DNA of 64,000 nt from an uncultured bacterium (GTDB taxonomy: Bacteria; Planctomycetota; UBA1135; GCA-002686595), in contig CALSNU010000005.1 of assembly GCA_943787795.1 (NCBI GenBank), forward strand, positions 128,001 to 192,000, read 5' to 3'. The notes under the pieces were generated by a model, which had not been told where the DNA came from, searched no databases, and saw only the letters and a list, made by a program, of their open reading frames with translations. The position numbers and the translations under genes are program-made. Of the stretch, positions 18,442 to 59,306 are shown in pieces. Position 1 is the first letter of the stretch; the number at the start of each line of letters is the position of its first letter.

Positions 18442-19476
18442 TCAGCCCATCCAGGGCGCCTCGTAGCGCAGCCCGAGGTTGAGGATCTTCTGGATCAGCT
18501 GCGGGTAGCTGTAGCCCAGCTGCTCGAAGCTCTCTGCGAAGTCCTCGCCGAAGCACAGGTCTGGGTTCGGGTTGGCCTCGAGGATCCAGACCTGACCCTC
18601 GCGGTCCATGCGCATGTCGATGCGGCTGTAGCCCGAGAGCCCGACGGCCCGGTGGATGCGGCGGGCCGTGCGGCGGATGCGCTCGGTGGTGGCGTCGTCG
18701 AGGCCCTCGGCGGGTCCCGTGCGCAGGCCGATCTTGCGCTGATACTCGGGGTCCCACTTCACGCGGCTGGTGGCGATGTTGGCGACCCCGGGGGAGAGGT
18801 CGTCCATGAACAGCTCCCAGATGGGGCTGATCTCCACGCGCTTGTTGCCGAGCACGCCGACGGTGAGCTCTCGGCCCTCGATGTACTCCTCGCAGAGCGC
18901 GCCGGTCCCCACGGTCTCGTGGATGTACGTCACCCGGGTCTGGAGCTGGTCGAGGTCGTGGACGATCGACGCCTGGCTGATCCCCGTGGAAGCATGTTCG
19001 CTCCGCGACTTGACGAAGAGCGGCCAGCGGAGGCCCTTGGGGAGCCGCGGTAGGCGCTTGCCGCGGGGCGCGACGAAGAAGCGTGGGGCGCGGATCCGAT
19101 GGTAGGCGAGGACCTTTTTGAAGAGGGCCTTGTCATTGGCAGCGAGCAGGCCGCGGGGATTGCAGCCGGTGTAGAGCTGCTTCATCAGCTCCAGCCACGA
19201 GACCACGGCCGAGTCGTAGATGCCGGCGTCGTGGAAGTGGGTGAGCAGATTGAAGGCCAGGTGCGGCTTGAGGTCCTTGAGCGCTCGGCGGATCGGCGCG
19301 AGCTCATCGACCACCGGAACGTGGATGACCTCGTGGCCGAGGGCCCTGAGGGTGGTGCAGACATCGAGCTCCTGCTTGATGTCGTTGAGCTCCCTCTCGC
19401 TCAGCCCCTCGACCGACGCTGGCGGCGCGAGGTGGGCGTGCATCAGGACGGCGACGCGGAGCTTGCGCTTGGTCAT
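18442..19476 (-). CDS. D-Ala-D-Ala ligase-like ATP-grasp enzyme (non-canonical)
   Basis: AFNL, YTGC, DKALFK, PLFVK..EHASTGI, EEYIEGRELTV, YSRIDMR, LEANPNP; lacks the N-terminal GGxSxEH motif of true Ddl; ATGA-coupled to the upstream peptidase. Confidence 0.85.
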   Translation of the reverse strand: MTKRKLRVAVLMHAHLAPPASVEGLSERELNDIKQELDVCTTLRALGHEVIHVPVVDELAPIRRALKDLKPHLAFNLLTHFHDAGIYDSAVVSWLELMKQLYTGCNPRGLLAANDKALFKKVLAYHRIRAPRFFVAPRGKRLPRLPKGLRWPLFVKSRSEHASTGISQASIVHDLDQLQTRVTYIHETVGTGALCEEYIEGRELTVGVLGNKRVEISPIWELFMDDLSPGVANIATSRVKWDPEYQRKIGLRTGPAEGLDDATTERIRRTARRIHRAVGLSGYSRIDMRMDREGQVWILEANPNPDLCFGEDFAESFEQLGYSYPQLIQKILNLGLRYEAPWMG

Positions 19477-20483
19477 CGGTGGTACCTGGGGTGACCCCCG
19501 AAGACGAACTGGGAAGAGAGGGAGGTGAGCAGGATCGCCGAATCCAGCAGGGCGTCTTGCTCGCCGCGCGGGAGCCGAAGGCCCTCCTCGCGGGCGCGCA
19601 GGGTCATCTCCCGGACGACGTGGTCCAGGAGGTATCGGTGCTGTCCGGTGGCGGCAGCGACCTGGCGCACGAGGCGCGCGCGGTGCTTGCGGAGGAACGG
19701 CGCCAGGCGCGGCGCGTTGGCCCGGGAGTCCTCCCCGCGGGGGAAGGAGTGGCGCAGCTGGCCGTTGAAGGCCGGGGTCCCCTCGCTGGCGTAGATCCCC
19801 TTCTTCTGGTCGTAGTACTCGCGGAGGGTCATGCGCACCCGCGCGAGCGGCTCCTCACGGCGGCGCGTGGTCCGGCGGGGGCCCGCTCGACCGACGCTGC
19901 CCATGAGCTCGTGCACGAACCTGAGCTTGTCCAGCGCTGCCCAGCCCTCGTAGCGCTTCCGCCAGCGGCTGCCGGGCCGGAGCCAGACGGCAAAGGTCTC
20001 CGCGAAGTCCTCCAGCGGATGGCTCTGGGCGTACCAGTAATCGAGGTGCTGGACGAAGGCGCGGCTGTTGGGGTCCGGGGTATACGAGCTGCGGTAGGGC
20101 TCGCCGGCGCGGCCGAAGACCTCGCGCCACCGGCGCATCCGCCTGAGGCCGTAGGCGTTGTCCAGGGCGTGGGCAGCCTCATGGCGCATGATCTTCATGC
20201 AGCCCTCGCGGGTCGCGCCCTCGACCTCGAGCATCTGCGTCCGCTCGAGCCGCACGAGCCGCGGGTGGGCGAGGTAGAAGGGGATCGCGAACCCCGTCGC
20301 GTCGTCAGGAGTGAACCACTCGGTGGAGAGCCAGGCGTAGGGCCGGAAGGAGATCGACCGCCGCGCGAGCTCCGCGTGGAGCTCCTCGAGCCGCGCCTGC
20401 AGGGGCGAGGTCTCCAGGGTCAGCCCGAGGTCCTTGATCGAAACGTCGAGGAGCTGGTCGTGGGGGAGGCGGGTCCAATCCAT
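19473..20483 (-). CDS. Putative zinc-binding metallopeptidase (Peptidase_Mx-like zincin)
   Basis: HExxH (HEAAH), YAQSHPLEDFAETF, EWFTPD..GFAIPFYLAHP; start MDWTRL at 20483 is approximate. Confidence 0.8.
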   Translation of the reverse strand: MDWTRLPHDQLLDVSIKDLGLTLETSPLQARLEELHAELARRSISFRPYAWLSTEWFTPDDATGFAIPFYLAHPRLVRLERTQMLEVEGATREGCMKIMRHEAAHALDNAYGLRRMRRWREVFGRAGEPYRSSYTPDPNSRAFVQHLDYWYAQSHPLEDFAETFAVWLRPGSRWRKRYEGWAALDKLRFVHELMGSVGRAGPRRTTRRREEPLARVRMTLREYYDQKKGIYASEGTPAFNGQLRHSFPRGEDSRANAPRLAPFLRKHRARLVRQVAAATGQHRYLLDHVVREMTLRAREEGLRLPRGEQDALLDSAILLTSLSSQFVFGGHPRYHR

Positions 20484-20577: not shown

Positions 20578-22737
20578 CTACTTGAGGTCGAGGACGCCGG
20601 TGCCGTCCCCGCTCGTGAGGGTCTTGGTGTTGGCGAGGTAGTTCGAGCCCATGGTGAGCATCGTCCTCCAGGGGCGGGAGGTGCGATCACCGCAGAGCCC
20701 GAGGGCCACCACGGCGGTCTCGCGGACGGCGACAGAGTACTTGTCCTCCTTGTCCGTCACGATCTCGCAGAGGATCTCGACGCCGCGCTTGTCCCCGATG
20801 TACCCGAGGGCAGACACGGCCGCGATCTGGCGGGCGTCTCCGTCCTCTTCGTCGAGGGACGAGTTCAGGACCTCCAGCAGGGACTCCGCGACGCTCTCGT
20901 CGCCGAGCATGCCGAGGGCGAGCCCCGTGCGCGTCTGGAGCAACGGCTGCTCATCCGCGTCCACCAAGGTCTCCTGCAGCGACTCGATCGCCTCGCGCGC
21001 GCCGACCATGCCGAGGGACATGGCGACGTAGCCGCGGGCGTCCTCGTCACGGACCTTGTCGAGCTTCTTGAGCAGGCGCGGCGCCGCATCCGGCGTCCCG
21101 CGCAGGCCCATGGCGATCGAGTAGGCGCCCAGGTCCGCGACGCGCCTGGCGGAGCGCATGGAGGACAGGATGGCCGTGTCGACGCCCGAGTCCGGCTCGA
21201 CACCCTTGGCGCGGAGCTCGTGGCCCAGCACGCCGAGGGCGATGGCGGCCCAGGCCTTCTCCTTCTTCTTACCGGAGGAGAGCCCGCGGGTCAGGGTGTT
21301 GCGCACGTCGCCGATGCCGGCGTAGGGCTCATCGCCCTGGCCAGCGTGACCGCCGACCTCCGCGAGGGAGATCATGGCGAAGCGACGCTCCATGTCACCG
21401 CCGCCCTTCATCGAGCGACGGAGGGCCCAGCGGATCCACTTGTCCGTGTTGTCGTTGTCCGCGTCCCCGATGAGCCCGAGGGCGAGGGTGGCGCTCTCAC
21501 GCACCTGACGAGGCTGACGGGCAGACTTCTCGAGGGCGCGCACGAGGACCTCGGAGACGCCCTCCTTCATCCGCTCGGTCATCCCATCCGGACGGGCCGC
21601 GACGAGGCGACCGAGGGTGGTCGCCGTGTGGGCACGCAGGATCGGGTCGAACTCCTCGTCCGCCGTGAAGTACCTCATGAGGTACGTCACCTGCGGGCGC
21701 AGGGAGGTGTGGGGGTCGGGGACGACGCAGGTACCGCAGTAGCAGGCCACCACGTCCTCATCGACCTGAAGGGGCACCAGGCCCAGGGAGATCATCGCTG
21801 CCACGCGGGCATCGTTGGCGTCCGAGGCGTCGTTCTCGAGGATGTCGATCAGCGTCCGGACGACCTGGGACCGGACCGCCTGGTCCGTGCTCCTCGAGCC
21901 GATCATGCCGAGCCCGTACGCCGCGTAGGAGCGCATGGACATCGGGACGCGGGCGGTGGGGTGCTCACCCTCTGGGGAGATGAGCTTGCATCCCTCCTTG
22001 GTGTTGAGGGCGATCTCCCGGAGCATGTCGACGCGTGACGCGTTACCCGTCAGGCCGAGCACGAAGGCCGCCGTCGTGTGCATCTCCTCGGTGCCGTTCG
22101 CGAGGAACCAGTTGGTCACCCAGTCGAACTTGCCCTGGTTCTGACCGCCGACTCGCGTCATGGCGATGAGCGCCGACTGGCAGAACTCGTTGGAGCCGCC
22201 CTTCTCGAGGCCCTTGAGGAGGGCGTCGGAGAGGATCCCGTCGATGACGCGGTCCTGGGCGCGACCGCCCACGGTCTCCTGCTCGCGCTGGCCGCTACCG
22301 AGGTAGAAGTCATCGCTGCCCGTGAAGGCGCGGCCCGTCTGGATGTTCGAGAAGCGGAGGAAGCGGTCCTTGTTGAAGGACCACCACAGCTGCCAGTCGC
22401 TGCTGTCCTCGATTCGCCCGTAGCGGTCGATATCGTAGGGGTCCTGGCCAGGCATCACCGGCAGTCCGCCGAGCGGAATCTCCGGGAGGCCCATGGGAGG
22501 GGGAGACTGGGGTCCAGCGACTTGAGGGCCGGCGCCGCCGCCAGCAGGTCCACTCGCGGGGCCAGGTCCGCCGGCGCCTCCGCCAGCGGGACGCGGTGCG
22601 TCAGCAGGTCGAGCGCCCCCACCGGGGGCGCGGGCTCCACCGCCTCATCATTGGAAGGCGAAGGTCCAGTCGGCGCATCCGATGGCGCCTCCAAGGACCA
22701 CGGCCGTGCGTGCGAGCAGGACGTTGAACGAAGTCAT
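20578..22737 (-). CDS. Exported HEAT-repeat protein, 719 aa if two adjacent in-frame TGA codons (codons 30-31) are decoded; putative selenoprotein
   Basis: SD-like AGGGAG, ATG 22737, signal-peptide-like segment, CAA TGA TGA, Gly/Pro-rich linker in frame with ORF 20578..22494 (WQLWWSFNK, repeated AxxALGxxG helical repeats). The core ORF is secure; the N-terminal extension is inferred. Confidence 0.75.
22613..22631 (-). promoter_or_regulatory. Putative bacterial SECIS hairpin downstream of UGA UGA
   Basis: mRNA GCGCCCCC-GGU-GGGGGCGC, perfect 8-bp stem; loop begins 21 nt after the second UGA; GGUG apex as in the selD SECIS. Confidence 0.6.
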
Positions 22738-23051
22738 GGGGTCTCTCCCTGTGAGGGGGTGGAATCGAGGAGCTAGCGCTTGGCTGCGTCGCGGCGGCGC
22801 ACTCCACGTCTCAAGGATACGAGTCTGAGGGGATCCAATCGAGGCAATGAGTGGATTCGACGCCCCTGCCTTTGGGAAGCGCCACGCGACCAGACTGTTG
22901 CGGGGAAAAAGTGGTTTCTGACCCGTTCCGGGGCGGAAAGGGGGGCGCTGCGGGTCTACCATGCGGCCTGCCGCGGGACGGGCCCTTTCGTCCGCCGCGT
23001 GGCTTGCCCGAAATGCTTCGCTGCGTGGCTCGTTCTGAGCACGCGCGGAGG

Positions 23052-24776
<1,725 letters not shown>

Positions 24777-47298: not shown

Positions 47299-49740
47299 AT
47301 GGACGAATTGGCAGAGGCTCCGGGCCGACTCCGCACAGACGGCTTGCGAGCGTGGGGCGCGCTCCTGATCTGGCTGACCGCTGGCGCGACAGCCGTCTGG
47401 CTCGGAGCGCCACCGCCGGCGCTGCCCGAAGATGCGCCAGCGGAGGTCGCGTCCGGAGGGCGCGCCGGCGCCCTTCTCGAACGCATCGCTCGGGAAGAGG
47501 GCGGCGCAGCACCGCAGCCGCGACCGGTGGGGACCGCCGCGAACGCGCGCTGCCGGGAGCGCATCCTCGACGAGTGGCGGCGTATCGGCTTCACCCCCGA
47601 GGTCTCCGAGCGGGTCACCGTCGTTGGAGATTGGAGCCTCGCTGGATCCACAAAGAACATTCTGACTCGCCTCCCCGGGACCGGTCGCAGCAGCGGCCCT
47701 GGCACCGCCATCCTGTGCATGGCGCACTACGACTCGGTGGGGGCCGGGCCCGGCATCGGTGATGACCTCTCCGGGGTCGCTGCCCTCCTGGAGGTCGCGC
47801 GGGCCCTCAAGGCACGGGGCGGGACGGGGCGCGACGTGATCTTCCTCATCGATGACGCAGAGGAGTCTGGCTTGCTGGGGGCGGCGGCGTTCACGCAGCA
47901 TCACCCCTGGGCCGCGGATGTCGGCGCGGTGATCAACCTGGAGGCCCGAGGGACGAGCGGGCCGAGTCGGATGTTCGAGACGGGGCCAGGCAACGCCGCC
48001 CTCGTGGAGGCCCTGGCCGATGTCGTCACGCGCCCGAGCACGAGCTCGGTCTCCGTGGAGGTGTATCGGCGGATGCCCAACGACACCGACTTCTCCGTCT
48101 GGCGCAGGCTCGGAGTCCCGGGCCTGAACTTCGCGTTCATCGGTGACGTCGCTCGATACCACACGCCCCTGGACGACCTCGAGCACCTGGATCCGCGGAG
48201 CCTTCAGCACCACGTGACCAACGCCATGGAGGCGGTGCTCGCCCTCGACCAGGCGCCCCTCCCCGCGAGACCCTCTGGCGCTCAGACCGCGGACAAGGCC
48301 AGCGCCCCGGCCTCCGCAGACGCCGTGTTTCTGGACCTCGGCGGCCGCTCAGTCGTGACCATGGGGATCCCCACGATCCGGTTCCTCGGCGGCCTCTTCT
48401 TCCTGCTCTCCCTGGTGGGCATCAGCCGGGCCTTGACCCGCGGCGCGCTCGGGCTGAGGGGAATCATGCTGGCGCTCCTGGGCGTCTCGTTGGCCACGGG
48501 TTTGGCGGTCATGGTCGCCAAGTTCCACCTCGACCTGCTGCGTATCCTCGGCGCCCCGGCTGTGACCTTCTCGGCGGCGAGCGACCTCCTTGCGGTGAGC
48601 GTCGGCGCGATCGGGCTCGGGTCCCTCCTGGCCATGGTCTTGTTCCTCACGCGGGTCGTGACCTCGGCTGAGTGCGGCGCCGCCGTCGCGCTCATGGTCA
48701 CCCTCGCGGGGATGCTCTTGACCTGGGCCGCACCCGGGGCAGCCTTCTTGCTCGTCTTCCCCTCGGCGATCCTCGCGGTGACCTGGTTCATCTTCCCCAA
48801 GAAGGGCGATCTCGGCGCGCAGGTCAGCAACGCCGCGCTCTTCGCGCTGGGCATCGCCGCCTTCCTCTGGATGCCCCTTCACCTCGGGCTCCTCGACGCC
48901 TTTGGCGCAGGCTCCGGGGCGGTGCTCCTGGGCCCGCTCCTGCTCTGCGGAGCGCTGCTCCTCGCGCCGATCTGTCGGGCCTCAGGAGGGGCCTCCCCGT
49001 GGATCACCGCGGTGCTGCTGGCTGTTGGCCTCGGGGCAGGGGCCTTGGCGACCCGGGCACGTGCGCTCACCCCCGATCAGCCGGGAAAGCTCAACCTGGT
49101 CCATGTGCAGACCGCCGGCGGCGAGGCCTGTTGGTTGGCCCGTGGCTTCGCGGCGGGGGCCTTGGATTCAGAGGTGCGTACGGAGCTTGTCAGCTCCCTC
49201 GGAGGTGCCGTCCTGAGGCCTCCCTTCGAGCGGATCCCCTGGGCGGGCAGGACGGCCTTCAGCCTGAGCACGCGCCCGGTCAACGTCCCCTTCCCCGAGC
49301 TCGAGGTGGTCGACGGTCGGCTCTCCGAGGAGGGGGGCACGGCCAGGCTCCGGATGCGCACGAACCGCGGCGGCGATGAGCTCCTCCTCAACGCGGCGGG
49401 GCTCGGCGCCATGCGGGCCGAGGGGGTCACTGTGTCGCCGCGAGGGCTGTCCTGGCTCGCCCCGGGCGACGGGTGGCTTGAGTTCGAGGTGGACCTCGCG
49501 GACGAGCTCGAGGCATCAATCACGGTCTTCGACAAGCGCTTCGGTCTGAGCCGGGTCCTGACGCAGCGTGCCGAGATGTTCCTGACGGAGCGGGAGCCTC
49601 TCCTGGTCCCGGCCCACGACGGCGACGGCTCCATCCTCAAGGCCGAATACGTGCTGCGGATCGACGCCGAGAGCGGGGAGGCCAGCCTGCGGATCAAGGG
49701 CCCGGACGCCGCAGGACCCGAGGGCGGGGGAGGCCGGTGA
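47299..49740 (+). CDS. Membrane-embedded M28 family metallopeptidase
   Basis: AHYDSV, GIGDD, DAEESGL, NLEARG, NDTDF, YHTPLD followed by multiple TM helices and a soluble C-terminal domain. Confidence 0.9.
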   Translation: MDELAEAPGRLRTDGLRAWGALLIWLTAGATAVWLGAPPPALPEDAPAEVASGGRAGALLERIAREEGGAAPQPRPVGTAANARCRERILDEWRRIGFTPEVSERVTVVGDWSLAGSTKNILTRLPGTGRSSGPGTAILCMAHYDSVGAGPGIGDDLSGVAALLEVARALKARGGTGRDVIFLIDDAEESGLLGAAAFTQHHPWAADVGAVINLEARGTSGPSRMFETGPGNAALVEALADVVTRPSTSSVSVEVYRRMPNDTDFSVWRRLGVPGLNFAFIGDVARYHTPLDDLEHLDPRSLQHHVTNAMEAVLALDQAPLPARPSGAQTADKASAPASADAVFLDLGGRSVVTMGIPTIRFLGGLFFLLSLVGISRALTRGALGLRGIMLALLGVSLATGLAVMVAKFHLDLLRILGAPAVTFSAASDLLAVSVGAIGLGSLLAMVLFLTRVVTSAECGAAVALMVTLAGMLLTWAAPGAAFLLVFPSAILAVTWFIFPKKGDLGAQVSNAALFALGIAAFLWMPLHLGLLDAFGAGSGAVLLGPLLLCGALLLAPICRASGGASPWITAVLLAVGLGAGALATRARALTPDQPGKLNLVHVQTAGGEACWLARGFAAGALDSEVRTELVSSLGGAVLRPPFERIPWAGRTAFSLSTRPVNVPFPELEVVDGRLSEEGGTARLRMRTNRGGDELLLNAAGLGAMRAEGVTVSPRGLSWLAPGDGWLEFEVDLADELEASITVFDKRFGLSRVLTQRAEMFLTEREPLLVPAHDGDGSILKAEYVLRIDAESGEASLRIKGPDAAGPEGGGGR

Positions 49741-51101
49741 TTCGGCGCCTCTGGCGATGCGCGCTCGCCCTGGGGGCCGTGCTGGTCGCGGCCTGCGGGG
49801 GAGACAGCCCGCGACCCAGCGTGGTCATGGTGGTCGGCGACACCCTTCGTGCCGACAAGCTCAGCTGCATGGGGGGGCCCGCGGGGCTGACCCCGTACCT
49901 GGACCGCATCGCGTCGGATGGTGTGCGCTTCGATCAGGCTCGCTCCCACGCCCCCTGGACGCTGCCCTCCACCGCCTCCATGCTCACCTCGCTCCACCCC
50001 GAGGAGCACGGGGCGGGCGGTCGCCTCGGCCGCTTCACGACGCTCGACGAGGAGGTTGAGACCGTGGTGAAGGGCTTCCGTGACCAGGGGTACCGGACCC
50101 ACGCGATCGTTAACGTGCTCTTCCTCGATCCGGGCCTCTTCGGGGTCACCCGGGACTTCGAGACCGTGGATCAGCAGGTCTTCGAGACCAACGTCGACGT
50201 GCGCGCGGCCGACGCGACGACCCGGGCCGCGCTGGAGTGGATCGAGGCGAATCGTGACGACGGGCCCTTCTTCCTCCTCGTCCACTACTTCGACCCGCAC
50301 TGCGTCTACGCGCCACCGCCCGCGTTCCGCGAGCGGTGGGCTGCGCCTGCGGATCAACAGGGGGATTGGACCTTCGGGACCCGGCCGCAGATGGTCGCGA
50401 TCCGCGAGGGCGAGCTCTCACCCGCGGCGGCGACCATCGAGCGCGCTGAGGCCCTGTACAACGGCGAGGTCAGCTACCTCGACGCCCAGATTGGGCGCCT
50501 CGATGACGGCCTGGCGTCCATGGGGCAGCGGGATGAGCTGGTCCTCGTCGTGACGGCGGATCACGGTGAGGAGTTCCTGGACCACGGCGGCTTCGAGCAC
50601 GGTCACACCCTGTACGACGAGCTCGTCCGGGTGCCGCTGCTGATCCGCGCGCCGGCGAGGCTCAAGCCGGGGGTCGTGGGCGCCCCGGTCCGCCACATCG
50701 ACCTCGCCCCGACGCTCTGCGAGCTCTGCGACCTGCCGGTCCCCGGACAATTCGTCGGGCGCAGCCTCGTCCCGCTGGCGGACGGTGAGCTCGAGCTCGA
50801 GCAGCGATCGACTCTGGCCCACGGGAACATGTGGGCGCGGCCTCAGACCAGTTGGACCTCGGGGGGCTGGAAGCTGATCGTGCGAGAGGGCGCCCCGGCG
50901 CAGCTCTACGAGGTGGCGAGCGACCCCGGAGAGCTCCGGGACCTCGCGGCAGAACGACCGGAGGAGCGGGCCCGCCTGCAGGCTGAGCTCGAGGCCGTGG
51001 AGCGCGGAATGACCGCGCTACGGCGCGGGGAGGCGGCAACGCTGGACCCCCGCACACGTGAGGTGCTCAGCGGACTGGGCTACGGTGGAGAGGACGAATG
51101 A
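49737..51101 (+). CDS. Sulfatase-like hydrolase lipoprotein (no Cys/Ser FGly motif)
   Basis: LVAAC lipobox, DTLRAD, PWTLPSTAS, HYFDPH, YNGEV..LD, ADHGEEF..H..HG. Confidence 0.88.
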   Translation: MIRRLWRCALALGAVLVAACGGDSPRPSVVMVVGDTLRADKLSCMGGPAGLTPYLDRIASDGVRFDQARSHAPWTLPSTASMLTSLHPEEHGAGGRLGRFTTLDEEVETVVKGFRDQGYRTHAIVNVLFLDPGLFGVTRDFETVDQQVFETNVDVRAADATTRAALEWIEANRDDGPFFLLVHYFDPHCVYAPPPAFRERWAAPADQQGDWTFGTRPQMVAIREGELSPAAATIERAEALYNGEVSYLDAQIGRLDDGLASMGQRDELVLVVTADHGEEFLDHGGFEHGHTLYDELVRVPLLIRAPARLKPGVVGAPVRHIDLAPTLCELCDLPVPGQFVGRSLVPLADGELELEQRSTLAHGNMWARPQTSWTSGGWKLIVREGAPAQLYEVASDPGELRDLAAERPEERARLQAELEAVERGMTALRRGEAATLDPRTREVLSGLGYGGEDE

Positions 51102-56252: not shown

Positions 56253-56405
56253 GACGGGGAGTGCGCTGGCGCCTGAGGGGCGCGAAGCTGAGGCCGAGGC
56301 CGTGGGGGGGGGGATGCGCCATGGGCACAACCTAACAGCGGTTCGGACCGGGATCGAGCCCGGCGGCGCGACGGACGGCTCGTCGGGCGCTAATCTCGGG
56401 GCACC

Positions 56406-57914
56406 ATGAGTTCCGGTAAGCAGGCCAACAGCGAGGCAAACCCGTTCCGAGCCCTCCCGAGCGTGGACGAGGGGCGTCGGGTGCTCGACGGGATCCTGGA
56501 TGCTCCCGCAGGCGGCCCTGCCGGTGACACGACCGGTGATCAGGCGGGCGACCCGTCGGGTCATTCACTGAACGCCGACGCTCGCCTGGGCGCGATCCCG
56601 GCGGCAGTGCGCACCGAGCTCGTCCAGCAGGAGCTGGACGCCTTCCGGCGGCGCATCGGCAAGGACGGCCTGAGCGGGGCGGACGTGGAGGCGGAGCTCT
56701 CTGGCGGTGCGTTCGAGGCAGCGCTTTCCGCGCGAGCCAGGGTGGAGGCTGGCCGAGGGGTCCGCTCGGCCGTGAACGCCACCGGGGTCGTGCTGCACAC
56801 CAACCTCGGGCGGGCGCCGGTGCATCCCGAGGCGGCCGAGCGCATGCGCGCCGCCGCCGAGGGGTACTGCGTGCTCGAGATGGATCGCTTCAGCGCGCGG
56901 CGCAACGAACGCGACGCGCGCCTCGGGGTGCTTCTCTCCCGCCTCACCGGCGCAGAGGTCGGTATCGCCGTGAACAACTGCGCCGGCGCCGCCTTCCTGA
57001 TGATGCAGACATTCGCCGGCGGGCGTGAGGCGGTCGTGAGTCGAGGCGAACTCGTCGAGATCGGTGGTTCGTTTCGGGTCCCTGACGTGATGGCGCGCGC
57101 GGGGGTGCGGATGATCGAGGTCGGTACCACGAACCGCACGCGGGCCGTGGACTACGAGCGCGCGATCGGGCCGGATACGGGGCTGCTCATGAAGGTTCAC
57201 ACGAGCAACTATCGGGTCGTGGGCTTCACCGAGGAGGCGGACCCGGCGGAGCTCGCGCAGCTTGGCAAGGAGCACGGGGTGACCTCGGGCTGGGACCTCG
57301 GATCGGGGCGCATCGAGGTCGAGGGGACACGCCCCCTCGACGAGGTCGGCGACGAGACCGTGGTGCGCGACGCCGTGGCCACAGGCGTTGACGTGGTGGC
57401 CTTCTCCGGGGACAAGCTCCTCGGGGGCCCCCAGGCCGGGCTGATCGTTGGCCGTCGGGACTCGATCCGGGCCCTGCGGGCCAATCCCATCTACCGTGCG
57501 CTCCGCCTGGACAAGGTCGCGCTCGCTGGCCTCGAGGCCACCCTCGAGCTGCTGCTCGCTGGACGCGGCGGTGAGATCCCCTCACGCCGCCTCATGCATC
57601 GGCCTGAGGCCGAGCTGGCCGAGGCCGCTGGCCGTATCGCGGCGGCCATCGACGCGCTCCCCGGCTTCGCCGCCGAGGCGGTCCCCGAAAAATCGCAGCC
57701 CGGCAGCGGCAGCGCGCCGACGATCTTCCTGCCCACGACCGCGGTCCGTGTGTCGGCGGACGGGCAGTCGGCCGAGTCCCTCGCCACCGGCCTCAGGGCC
57801 GGCGAGCCGCCGGTCTTCGTTCGAATTCATGAGGACGCCGTCCTGCTGGATCCGCGCGCGCTCCTGCCCGGGGATGAGGAGCGCCTCCTGGCAGCCTTCG
57901 CGGCGATCGCCTGA
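56406..57914 (+). CDS. selA: L-seryl-tRNA(Sec) selenium transferase (selenocysteine synthase)
   Basis: FRALPSVD, NATGVVLHTNLGRA, SRGELVEIGGSFRVPDVM, EVGTTNRT, KVHTSNY, DLGSG, FSGDKLLGGPQAG (PLP Lys). Confidence 0.97.
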   Translation: MSSGKQANSEANPFRALPSVDEGRRVLDGILDAPAGGPAGDTTGDQAGDPSGHSLNADARLGAIPAAVRTELVQQELDAFRRRIGKDGLSGADVEAELSGGAFEAALSARARVEAGRGVRSAVNATGVVLHTNLGRAPVHPEAAERMRAAAEGYCVLEMDRFSARRNERDARLGVLLSRLTGAEVGIAVNNCAGAAFLMMQTFAGGREAVVSRGELVEIGGSFRVPDVMARAGVRMIEVGTTNRTRAVDYERAIGPDTGLLMKVHTSNYRVVGFTEEADPAELAQLGKEHGVTSGWDLGSGRIEVEGTRPLDEVGDETVVRDAVATGVDVVAFSGDKLLGGPQAGLIVGRRDSIRALRANPIYRALRLDKVALAGLEATLELLLAGRGGEIPSRRLMHRPEAELAEAAGRIAAAIDALPGFAAEAVPEKSQPGSGSAPTIFLPTTAVRVSADGQSAESLATGLRAGEPPVFVRIHEDAVLLDPRALLPGDEERLLAAFAAIA

Positions 57915-58238: not shown

Positions 58239-59306
58239 ATGTTCAAACGCAACAAGCGACTCACCGACTACGCCGCCTGCGCGGGCTGAGCGGCCAAGAT
58301 GCCCATGGGGCAGCTCACGCAGGTGCTGCGTGACCTTGATCCGTCCTCCGATCCACGACTCATCGTCGGTCCTCAGACCGTCGACGACGCGGGCGTCGTC
58401 GTGCTCGGTGAGCGCGACGGCCTCCCCTCAGGGGTCGAGGTCGCGCTCGTGCAGACCGTGGACTACTTCCCGCCGGTGCTCGACGACGCCTACCTCTACG
58501 GCGCCGTCGCCGCGGCCAACTCTCTCTCGGACGTCTACGCCATGGGGGGGCGGCCCATCAGCGCGCTCAACCTGGCCGGGTTCCCGAAGGACTTCAACGA
58601 GCAGTGGATCGCCGACATCTTCCGGGGCGGCTTCGAGAAGGTCGCCGAGGCCGGGGCGGTGGTCGCTGGCGGGCACACGGTCGAGGCGCCCGAGCCCCAG
58701 TTCGGGTTCGCGGTCACGGGGATCGTGGAAAGGGCTCACCTCGCGGACAACGCGGGGGCCCAGCCGGGGGACGTCCTCTACCTGACCAAGTCGCTCGGGA
58801 TGGGGTCGATGACCACCGCGGGCAAGTTCCGCAAGGCGCCCGAGGCCACCGTCCGAGCCGCGGCCGAGCAGATGGCCACGCTCAACAACCGCGCGGCTGA
58901 GGCGATGAACAGCGCGGGCTCACACGCCTGCACGGACATCACCGGCTTCGGCCTGAACGGGCACGCCAGCAACATCGCGCGCTCGTCGGGGGTGACCATG
59001 CGCTTTGACCTCTCCGCGGTTCCGATCTTCCCGGGCGCGCGCGACCTGGCCGCCAGGGGCATCGTCTCGGGCGGCGTCAAGCGCGGCAAGTCCGCCCTCG
59101 CCGGTCAGGTGCAGGTTGCCAAGGGGCTCGACCAGGCGCTTGTGGACATCTCCTACGACGCGGAGACCTCGGGCGGCCTGCTGATCGTCCTCCCCGAAGC
59201 CCATGCTCCCAAGCTCGAGGACGAGCTCGCCCGGCGGGACGTCGAGGTGCACCGGATCGGTGAGGTGCTCCCGAGGGAGGGTGACTCTCTCGTGCAGCTG
59301 GTCTAG
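58239..59306 (+). CDS. selD: Selenophosphate synthetase, selenoprotein form (Sec at codon 17)
   Basis: MFKRNKRLTDYAACAG-TGA(58287-58289)-AAKMP joins ORFs 58101..58289 and 58299..59306 in frame; the TGA aligns with catalytic Cys17 and Lys20 follows; DDAG, QTVDYF, ANSLSDVYAMGG, GGHT, TDITGFGL, ETSGGLL. Confidence 0.95.
58315..58333 (+). promoter_or_regulatory. Bacterial SECIS element of selD
   Basis: TCACGCAG-GTG-CTGCGTGA perfect 8-bp stem with apex about 33 nt after the UGA; resembles the GCAGGUCUGC apex of the E. coli fdhF SECIS. Confidence 0.8.

Follow-up and report, generated by a model that had tools for sequence, protein, structure and literature searches.

Background

Bacterial genes decoded by SelB, with Escherichia coli fdhF as the type example, combine an in-frame UGA with a hairpin, the selenocysteine insertion sequence (SECIS), which is placed just 3' of the UGA inside the coding region. 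Such genes typically have Cys homologues and occur together with selA, selB, selC and selD. We describe here a gene for a HEAT-repeat protein in which these features recur; in this gene and its orthologues the loop opens with G and then G or U, 18-24 nt from the UGA, on a stem of 6-9 bp. It occupies positions 20,578 to 22,737, on the minus strand, of a 64,000-nt stretch of DNA from an uncultured planctomycete (GTDB lineage Planctomycetota; UBA1135; GCA-002686595), namely positions 128,001 to 192,000 of contig CALSNU010000005.1 in assembly GCA_943787795.1, which we refer to as the window. The gene differs from the described bacterial cases in three respects: 1) two adjacent UGAs would be served by one hairpin, at two spacings 3 nt apart; 2) the UGAs are placed at the N-terminal end of the predicted mature exported chain; and 3) the body takes the form of a HEAT solenoid and not of a thiol-oxidoreductase-like or molybdopterin fold. 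The pair of UGAs is predicted to encode two vicinal selenocysteines (Sec, U).

Vicinal pairs of cysteines or selenocysteines on flexible arms are known from other proteins. Mammalian thioredoxin reductase has a C-terminal Gly-Cys-Sec-Gly redox tail, and fifteen orthologues of the window gene carry a pair of the type (Q)G-C-U-G, that is, a vicinal Cys-Sec on a flexible extension with a Cys motif in the body as a possible partner. Here, however, the motif is N-terminal, sits on a 70-residue tether and is joined to a body in which HEAT repeats are the sole domains found, with no flavin or NAD(P)H domain, while the pair in the window is Sec-Sec after Gln (Q-U-U-G); the likeness is therefore one of analogy only. 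Similarly, the C-terminal vicinal Cys-Cys tail of the mercuric reductase MerA passes Hg(II) to active-site cysteines. It shares with the HEAT protein a vicinal chalcogen pair on a flexible terminal arm and a fixed Cys site in the body, but there is no kinship in sequence or fold, and metal binding by the HEAT protein is purely hypothetical. The repeats in the C-terminal third are of the type seen in PBS-lyase HEAT-like proteins (PF03130 / PF13646; CpcE/F, NblB and the alphaRep designs based on them), of which CpcE/F and NblB differ in being cytoplasmic and in having no signal peptide, tether, Sec or CxCGxC motif.

More than one Sec per polypeptide also occurs in eukaryotic selenoprotein P, but in eukaryotes and archaea the SECIS element is located in an untranslated region, and its distance from the UGA is not constrained as that of the bacterial element is. 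Further multi-Sec proteins are a GOS ferredoxin-thioredoxin reductase read with two Sec (PMC2398784) and the archaeal FrhD/VhuD with several (PMC13188914); in the accessible parts of these two sources their Sec residues are not described as adjacent. In the literature searched we found no bacterial HEAT-repeat selenoprotein, no natural adjacent bacterial Sec codons and no report of selenium at the tip of an exported tether, and subscription papers or supplements may differ in this regard. Such a family is likewise absent from the accessible text of the selenoproteome papers PMC13326102, PMC12013277, PMC13188914, PMC2398784, PMC9312934 and PMC1794560.

Gene layout and the frame read across the TGA pair

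A sequence-only reading of the window had proposed that a Shine-Dalgarno-like AGGGAG and an ATG open a 719-codon frame that runs through TGA TGA and 50 stop-free linker codons into a HEAT open reading frame (ORF), that a hairpin presents its loop 21 and 24 nt past the two UGAs, and that selA and a Sec-containing selD lie in the same window. The letters and coordinates of the HEAT gene and of its hairpin are all as proposed, and the selA and selD genes have Pfam matches, with an in-frame TGA in the latter. The window, which has a G+C content of 70.5% and a planctomycete domain content (PSCyt1/2, PSD1 and DUF1501 in a Pfam scan), thus contains the following features:

22745..22750, minus strand: Shine-Dalgarno-like AGGGAG, 7 nt 5' of the ATG (read from the letters)
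22737-22735, minus strand: start codon ATG (read from the letters)
22651..22737, minus strand: codons 1-29, predicted N-terminal export signal MTSFNVLLARTAVVLGGAIGCADWTFAFQ (letters and translation)
22645..22650, minus strand: TGA TGA, in-frame codons 30 and 31, putatively read as Sec-Sec (letters and orthologues)
22613..22631, minus strand: SECIS-type hairpin GCGCCCCC-GGU-GGGGGCGC, with an 8-bp stem and its loop at 22623-22621 (covariation)
22435..22644, minus strand: codons 32 to ~101, Gly/Pro/Ala-rich disordered tether (purifying selection; predicted local distance difference test score, pLDDT, ~30)
20581..22434, minus strand: codons ~102-719, alpha-solenoid of HEAT / PBS-lyase HEAT-like repeats (Pfam, AlphaFold2)
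21727..21744, minus strand: CxCGxC motif, codons 332-337, Cys-Tyr-Cys-Gly-Thr-Cys (alignment, loop in the model)
20578..20580, minus strand: stop codon TAG ending the 719-codon gene (read from the letters)
56394..57914, plus strand: selA, L-seryl-tRNA(Sec) selenium transferase (Pfam PF03841, 399.8 bits)
58239..59306, plus strand: selD, selenophosphate synthetase, with an in-frame UGA at 58287-58289 (Pfam AIRS/AIRS_C)

The first 50 codons of the tether are stop-free and all lie 5' of the annotated start, ATG 22494, which opens a 638-codon HEAT ORF; the whole gene counted from ATG 22737 has 719 codons. The conventional interpretation would be that both UGAs are true stops, so that a 29-codon leader ORF is followed by a separate HEAT protein which starts at ATG 22494 and has no signal peptide. 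It agrees with the public gene calls of 600-667 aa, with the presence of an ATG at 22494, which has a positional counterpart in genera g1 and g4, and with the low G+C at third codon positions (GC3) of the linker. The pattern of substitution argues strongly against it. Counted by codon position (1/2/3) among five close orthologues, the variable columns number 0/1/6 for the signal peptide, 2/3/15 for the linker and 49/15/203 for the body. Independent metagenome contigs represent a second strain, with 18 differing sites in the interval 22477-22606; 14 of these 18 are third positions of the frame of the 719-codon gene (frame A). The frame-A peptide is conserved among 11 complete orthologous N-termini and is kept across 34 genomes, whereas the frame +1 peptide is not conserved even at 92-97% identity. 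Because of this peptide conservation and these third-position substitutions, both sides of the TGA pair appear to be translated in a single frame, with coding conservation on either side of the in-frame UGA as in other SelB/SECIS selenoprotein genes.

The 50 codons before ATG 22494 hence evolve as frame-A coding sequence and contain no start codon; in all 25 orthologues compared, the 22 codons that follow the UGA are free of in-frame ATG, GTG and TTG, two of the 25 have no in-frame start at all between the UGA and the body, and a start of the annotated type is matched only in genera g1 and g4. Moreover, the stop-free relatives carry signal peptide and linker on the same chain (17 of 20 stop-free paralogue loci), and true stops would leave the TGA/TGC alternation and the covarying hairpin described below without a reason. 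We consider it very improbable that the UGAs are true stops; as judged from conservation, 22737-20578 on the minus strand is one 719-codon gene and not a 29-codon mini-ORF plus a 638-codon gene.

An idea that the linker is read in frame +1, or in two frames, had been raised by its GC3 (in 22650-22510 frame +1 has GC3 ~0.96 and GC2 ~0.53, which is the usual coding pattern of this genome); it was dropped, as the +1 peptide is unconserved and the changes fall on frame-A third positions. The second strain, seen in metagenome as well as metatranscriptome contigs, occurs side by side with that of the window, and its haplotype has 18 changes across 190 nt (22447-22636).

The public records also bear on how the family is annotated. 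The orthologues are entered as proteins of 600-667 aa from planctomycete metagenome-assembled genomes, named 'HEAT repeat domain-containing' or 'hypothetical' and deprived of the signal peptide, while the stop-free paralogues and a Ser-Cys form of the orthologue are recorded at ~700 aa with their signal peptides retained. The expectation that gene callers would truncate the gene and lose its signal peptide is thereby borne out, and if the proposed decoding is right at least 34 genomes share a systematic annotation error, with the gene cut short and both the signal peptide and the likely active tip lost.

Alternation of Sec and Cys at the pair

We searched 339 genomes of the order with the first 200 residues as query, in a search with a stricter initial pass; the counts are those among the matches listed, with 49 others outside, and are therefore lower bounds. 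UGA-bearing orthologues were found in at least 34 genomes from 10 genera of one planctomycete family (at least 34 of its 174 genomes) and, among the matches listed, in 0 of 165 genomes from other families of the order. They range down to ~39-48% identity over the N-terminal 200 residues. The states of the pair in 35 orthologues are as follows:

TGA-TGA, 19 genomes: ..AFQ-U-U-GGG.. or ..AQG-U-U-G..
TGC-TGA, 15 genomes: ..AQG-C-U-G.. in 13; ..RR-C-U-G.. in G163; ..AQA-C-U-S.. in G044
AGC-TGC, 1 genome (G018): ..AQG-S-C-E..

Four more orthologues (G017, G142, G080 and G009) are cut by contig ends and were left out of these counts. Position 1 is accordingly TGA in 19, TGC in 15 and AGC in one, while 34 have TGA at position 2, where the remaining one has TGC; Trp, Arg and Gly codons are found at neither position in the 35 orthologues. 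Thus, Cys homologues align with the UGA at both positions (TGC at position 1 in 15 genomes, at position 2 in G018), and the prediction that orthologues would either keep TGA-TGA or alternate between Cys and Sec is upheld in at least 34 genomes.

In a quick tree, three CU and three UU species of one genus form sister groups within a clade of support 100, and G051, another CU form, clusters with a UU genus with support 94. Given these two placements position 1 would have switched between Cys and Sec at least twice, which would mean that the chemistry of the pair is under selection. CU forms make up the basal lineages, so the tentative direction is from Cys to Sec, and the pair was perhaps ancestrally Cys-Sec.

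The hairpin 3' of the pair

The hairpin in the window has a GGU loop, which the two UGAs precede by 24 and 21 nt, and an 8-bp stem, and taken alone it has a minimum free energy (MFE) of -17.0 kcal/mol. Across the orthologues an invariant CC-GGU-GG apex is found in 30 of the 34 UGA-bearing genes and a GUG loop in the remaining four (CUCCCC-GUG-GGGGAG in G151 and G020; GGCGGGG-GUG-CCCCGUC in G077 and G078), and in the 34 genes the loop starts 18, 19, 21 or 22 nt past the last UGA. The arms of the stem covary (ACC...GGU, UCC...GGA, GCC...GGC, CCC...GGG), such that when the mirrored Thr, Ser, Ala or Pro codon changes its first base, the Gly codon changes its synonymous third base to match. In 25 distinct sequences 97.1% of stem cells are paired, as against 74.9 +/- 2.1% in shuffled alignments, a value that 0 of 500 shuffles reach; in five of the seven stem pairs both partners vary (39 cells), and the score for covariation is 0.555 versus 0.124. 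Controls slid along the alignment are 43-78% paired, and pairs 8-10 from the loop are at chance level (8, 10 and 8 of 23). The suggestion that the hairpin would show covarying supports is therefore strongly sustained.

As Pro and Gly codons are inherently complementary, we also counted the background. Of the 34 UGA-bearing orthologues, 32 have a hairpin of at least 6 bp whose 3-nt loop is spaced by 18-22 nt; such a hairpin is found at the equivalent place in 0 of 17 stop-free paralogues and at a background rate of ~1% (13 of 1683 paralogue-linker codons; 53 of 5103 codons in other parts of the orthologue genes). G018, the sole orthologue without any UGA, has no hairpin. The consensus bacterial SECIS model is that of Zhang and Gladyshev; the accessible part of PMC13188914, which summarizes it, gives a loop of 3-9 nt, an upper stem of 4-16 bp, a G within the first two loop positions, a UGA-to-loop distance of 16-37 nt and an MFE of -7.5 kcal/mol or below. 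Of the 34 genes, 32 satisfy all of these published constraints, the window gene included. The support for the hairpin is thus comparative and does not come from the fold of a single sequence.

A scan of the region against Rfam gave no match to a SECIS family, and its sole match, a snoRNA model at a sub-threshold 17.7 bits, was taken as chance. Next to the pair itself, an invariant 6-bp stem CGCCUU / GAGGCG (22645-22664, minus strand) could loop out CCAAUGAU with the first UGA, the second UGA being partly paired; this stem shows no covariation and may merely mirror amino-acid conservation.

Sec machinery and the meaning of UGA

The genome encodes the full set of selA, selB, selC and selD. In addition to selA, it contains a tRNA-Sec (69 bits; cut-off 47), a selB gene (350 bits including the neighboring piece; cut-off 242) and a selD gene with its in-frame UGA at the active-site position (..YAACAG-U-AAK..). 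The HEAT gene lies ~34 kb from selA and selD. Among 41 related genomes selA is found in 40 and tRNA-Sec in 40, the two misses being assemblies that are 78-80% complete. UGA is not reassigned and is an ordinary stop elsewhere: it terminates 24 of the 31 confident ORFs in the window, and a genuine TGA stop ends the gene in five of the orthologues (G005, G016, G014, G020 and G018). On these features, together with the conservation across the UGA, the Cys homologues and the hairpin, the predicted decoding mechanism is of the known bacterial SelB/SECIS kind.

The selD gene has a hairpin of its own, ACGCAG-GUG-CUGCGU, a perfect 6-bp stem at 58317-58331 (plus strand) with its loop 33 nt past the UGA, as against 18-24 nt in the HEAT gene. 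The sequence-only reading had taken a GGUG apex to be common to both elements; the letters GGUG are indeed shared, but their register and spacing differ.

Read-through of the UGAs by a near-cognate tRNA, stimulated by the hairpin and placing Trp, Cys or Arg instead of Sec, would use the same frame and the same RNA element, and downstream RNA structures can promote such read-through in other systems. It is nevertheless a very unlikely explanation, as among sense codons only TGC (Cys) alternates with TGA (in 15 genomes at position 1 and in one at position 2) and TGG, CGA and GGA never occur at the pair. The hairpin also fits a SelB-type SECIS in loop sequence, stem length and spacing, and the full Sec machinery is encoded.

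The predicted protein

The N-terminus has the look of a Sec-type export signal, with a charged n-region and a hydrophobic core followed by ..WTFAFQ and with no twin-arginine, and by eye a basic n-region and a hydrophobic core can be recognized in 35 of 35 orthologues; the N-termini of the paralogues are likewise signal-like. The pair is preceded by A-x-G or, in genera g1 and g4, by A-F-Q (by eye); cleavage is thus predicted as AFQ|UU in the genus of the window and as AQG|UU or AQG|CU elsewhere. In an AlphaFold2 model from an alignment of 18 orthologues, residues 7-101 are disordered (pLDDT ~30) with the N-terminal tip docked nowhere, and residues ~160-719 form an alpha-solenoid (mean pLDDT 77.5, pTM 0.78) with helices throughout 162-708. 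The model agrees with the earlier proposal of a Gly/Pro tether followed by an alpha-solenoid scaffold.

The body is recognized as a HEAT protein by Pfam HEAT_2 (73.9 bits; cut-off 27.7) and HEAT_PBS (59.9 bits; cut-off 20.9). It does not belong to the phycobilin lyase (CpcE/CpcF/CpeY) or NblB families (best NCBIfam score NblB, 33.4 bits versus a cut-off of 300; CpcE 23.3 versus 330), and a scan of the window protein against NCBIfam gave no match above cut-off. Foldseek and a sequence search of PDB retrieved only alphaRep designs (sequence match E = 4.8e-33), the proteasome subunits Rpn1/Rpn2 and beta-catenin, at TMq values of no more than 0.36, and gave no functional lead.

A conserved feature of the body is the C332-x-C334-G-x-C337 loop, which the model places between helices 308-318 and 346-358 with a pLDDT of ~85. 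Its three Cys are shared by all 19 orthologues aligned and by one of 11 paralogues; the motif is missing from the 10 paralogues of the alignment that have an N-terminal His-Gly-Gly (HGG) tip, and the sole exception is the divergent locus G014:C102:2700-5650 (L014). This CxCGxC member, whose genome also holds a UU orthologue, has lost the N-terminal pair: its N-terminus reads ..AAQ-AR-PSGAPSG.., with no Cys/Sec pair and a single Cys in a long poly-Gly run, and it may be a decayed or re-purposed copy.

Proposed decoding and function

The above observations make it quite probable that the locus is a 719-codon gene for an exported selenoprotein in which adjacent UGAs are decoded as Sec by tRNA-Sec and SelB with a single SECIS, and the Sec-Sec decoding as such appears highly likely. 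In the scheme that we propose, SelB with Sec-tRNA bound to the hairpin would decode the first UGA; once the ribosome has moved on by one codon, this hairpin would be 3 nt nearer and would serve for the second UGA as well. The spacings are 18, 19 or 21 nt in the single-UGA orthologues and 18 + 21 or 21 + 24 nt in the UU forms (22 + 25 in G151 and G020); because the UU orthologues need two spacings, the system of this lineage would have to tolerate a window of at least 3 nt. The position of the UGAs right after the signal peptide could make a failed insertion cheap, the abortive product being the signal peptide only.

The signal peptide would be cleaved after A-x-G or A-F-Q, so that the mature chain would begin with the pair or have it no more than two residues in, followed by a disordered Gly/Pro tether of ~70 residues and a HEAT solenoid of ~600 residues. 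The pair might then form a diselenide or a selenenylsulfide, or bind a soft metal, and its tip could swing on the tether and work with the CxCGxC loop or with a bound partner. By analogy with the tails of thioredoxin reductase and MerA, we suggest only tentatively that the vicinal Sec-Sec or Cys-Sec is a redox-active or soft-metal-binding tip that cooperates with the CxCGxC loop or a partner. With a little more confidence we lean towards the broader proposition, namely that one SECIS programs two Sec insertions and so gives an exported, non-enzyme fold a vicinal Sec-Sec tip (diselenide or bis-selenolate), whose tethered arm and CxCGxC loop may serve a redox relay or soft-metal capture outside the cytoplasm.

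Several points weigh against this interpretation. Insertion of Sec in E. coli is inefficient and sensitive to the spacing between UGA and SECIS, and in the literature searched there is no experimental precedent for two insertions from one hairpin 3 nt apart. The case for Sec-Sec is a computational one, made from sequence. Folded by itself, the 71-nt region of the window gives z = -1.54, with 11 of 200 shuffles folding equally well, and in G165 and G168 one mismatch breaks the stem so that they miss the -7.5 kcal/mol threshold (in a contiguous-stem calculation). By composition the linker looks out of frame in frame A (GC1 and GC2 ~0.95, GC3 0.47-0.60); at 22644-22500 (minus strand) its Gly, Pro and Ala codons tend to end in T or A, against a GC3 of ~0.9 in the genes of this genome, and this bias reaches well past the hairpin, which explains part of it at most. 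The sequence-only reading had suggested examining whether the UGA form co-occurs with selABCD: the machinery is present, but the comparison has no discriminating power since nearly all relatives carry it. Gln at -1 is atypical for signal peptidase I, whose substrates have small residues at -3 and -1, so the pair may sit two residues in or cleavage may occur elsewhere. The quick tree carries a long-branch warning that bears on the direction from Cys to Sec, the order-wide counts are minima, and the one contig from a metatranscriptome library that spans the UGA pair hints only weakly at transcription, and not at read-through, as DNA carry-over is possible.

If Sec is inserted, it might still have no chemical role, the UGA pair acting instead as a selenium-dependent translational gate on an exported protein. 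Two insertions of low efficiency would tie the output steeply to the supply of Sec-tRNA, and the gene lies ~34 kb away from selA and selD. What is conserved at these positions, however, is a thiol or selenol and not the stop codon, with Cys at position 1 in 15 genomes and Ser-Cys in one, and the invariant CxCGxC co-occurs with the pair in this subfamily. We regard a pure gate as very unlikely.

The least credible option, an artefact or decay (sequencing or assembly error, a pseudogene, or compensating frameshifts from A to +1 and back to A), could appeal to the textbook coding composition of frame +1 in 22650-22510, but it is refuted as far as the sequence data allow by the unconserved +1 and conserved frame-A peptides, the substitutions at frame-A third positions, the strong purifying selection on the body in the UU clade (49/15/203), the same architecture in at least 34 independent assemblies and the identical letters in independent runs. 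The possible sequencing or assembly error that the sequence-only reading had wanted checked was thus not found: two independent DNA assemblies (X3 and X6) have the identical TGA TGA with 0 differences and 0 indels.

If Sec-Sec decoding is true, the locus would represent a selenoprotein family built on an exported HEAT solenoid with selenium at the end of a flexible tether, and would provide a natural example of neighboring Sec codons that share one bacterial SECIS. It would bear on how far SelB, SECIS and ribosome tolerate differences in the spacing of UGA and hairpin, and on whether a second SelB complex can load onto the hairpin when the ribosome has advanced by one codon, with relevance to the engineering of diselenide-containing proteins. 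The natural series UU, CU and SC, with hairpins at 18, 19, 21 and 22 nt, offers a ready set of variants. Near-identical DNA is found in marine runs of 13 studies, and because these planctomycetes are widespread in the sea the protein may matter for the handling of selenium or trace metals in seawater.

Paralogues and gene neighborhood

The exported HEAT paralogues form a large family, with several copies per genome across the order, often in tandem pairs or triples (e.g. G000:C6:239383-241440 and 47861-49888; L015-L031). The stop-free paralogues share with the window gene the overall architecture, ~30-37% identity, residence in the same genomes and a conserved N-terminal tip on a Gly/Pro tether. 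They differ in that the tip is His-Gly-Gly (G|HGG[TQS]Y[RP]GPGD.VPP, followed by a poly-Gly run, a Pro/Ser/Gly linker and the HEAT body), in having neither UGA nor hairpin, in the absence of CxCGxC from the HGG type, and in their usually tandem arrangement. The conserved His is the predicted first mature residue. As the paralogues share this layout of tip and tether, a conserved reactive tip on a Gly/Pro tether appears to be a theme of the family.

The gene neighborhood (thiC and a metallopeptidase gene; at paralogue loci a second HEAT gene and unrelated genes) offers no functional lead, and no mer genes were seen adjoining the HEAT gene. Directly 3' of the HEAT gene throughout genus g1 is a gene for a 336-aa protein (19476-20483, minus strand, in the window) with a weak match to Peptidase_Mx, a putative zinc metallopeptidase, and a homologue lies 5' of the HEAT gene in G085, G083, G090 and G048. 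On the other side thiC (23133-24776) is divergent from the HEAT gene and is its neighbor in three genera; a TPP riboswitch (RF00059, 60.5 bits; cut-off 54.3) at 23050-23144 on the plus strand lies 5' of thiC, and ~310 nt are left for the promoter of the HEAT gene.

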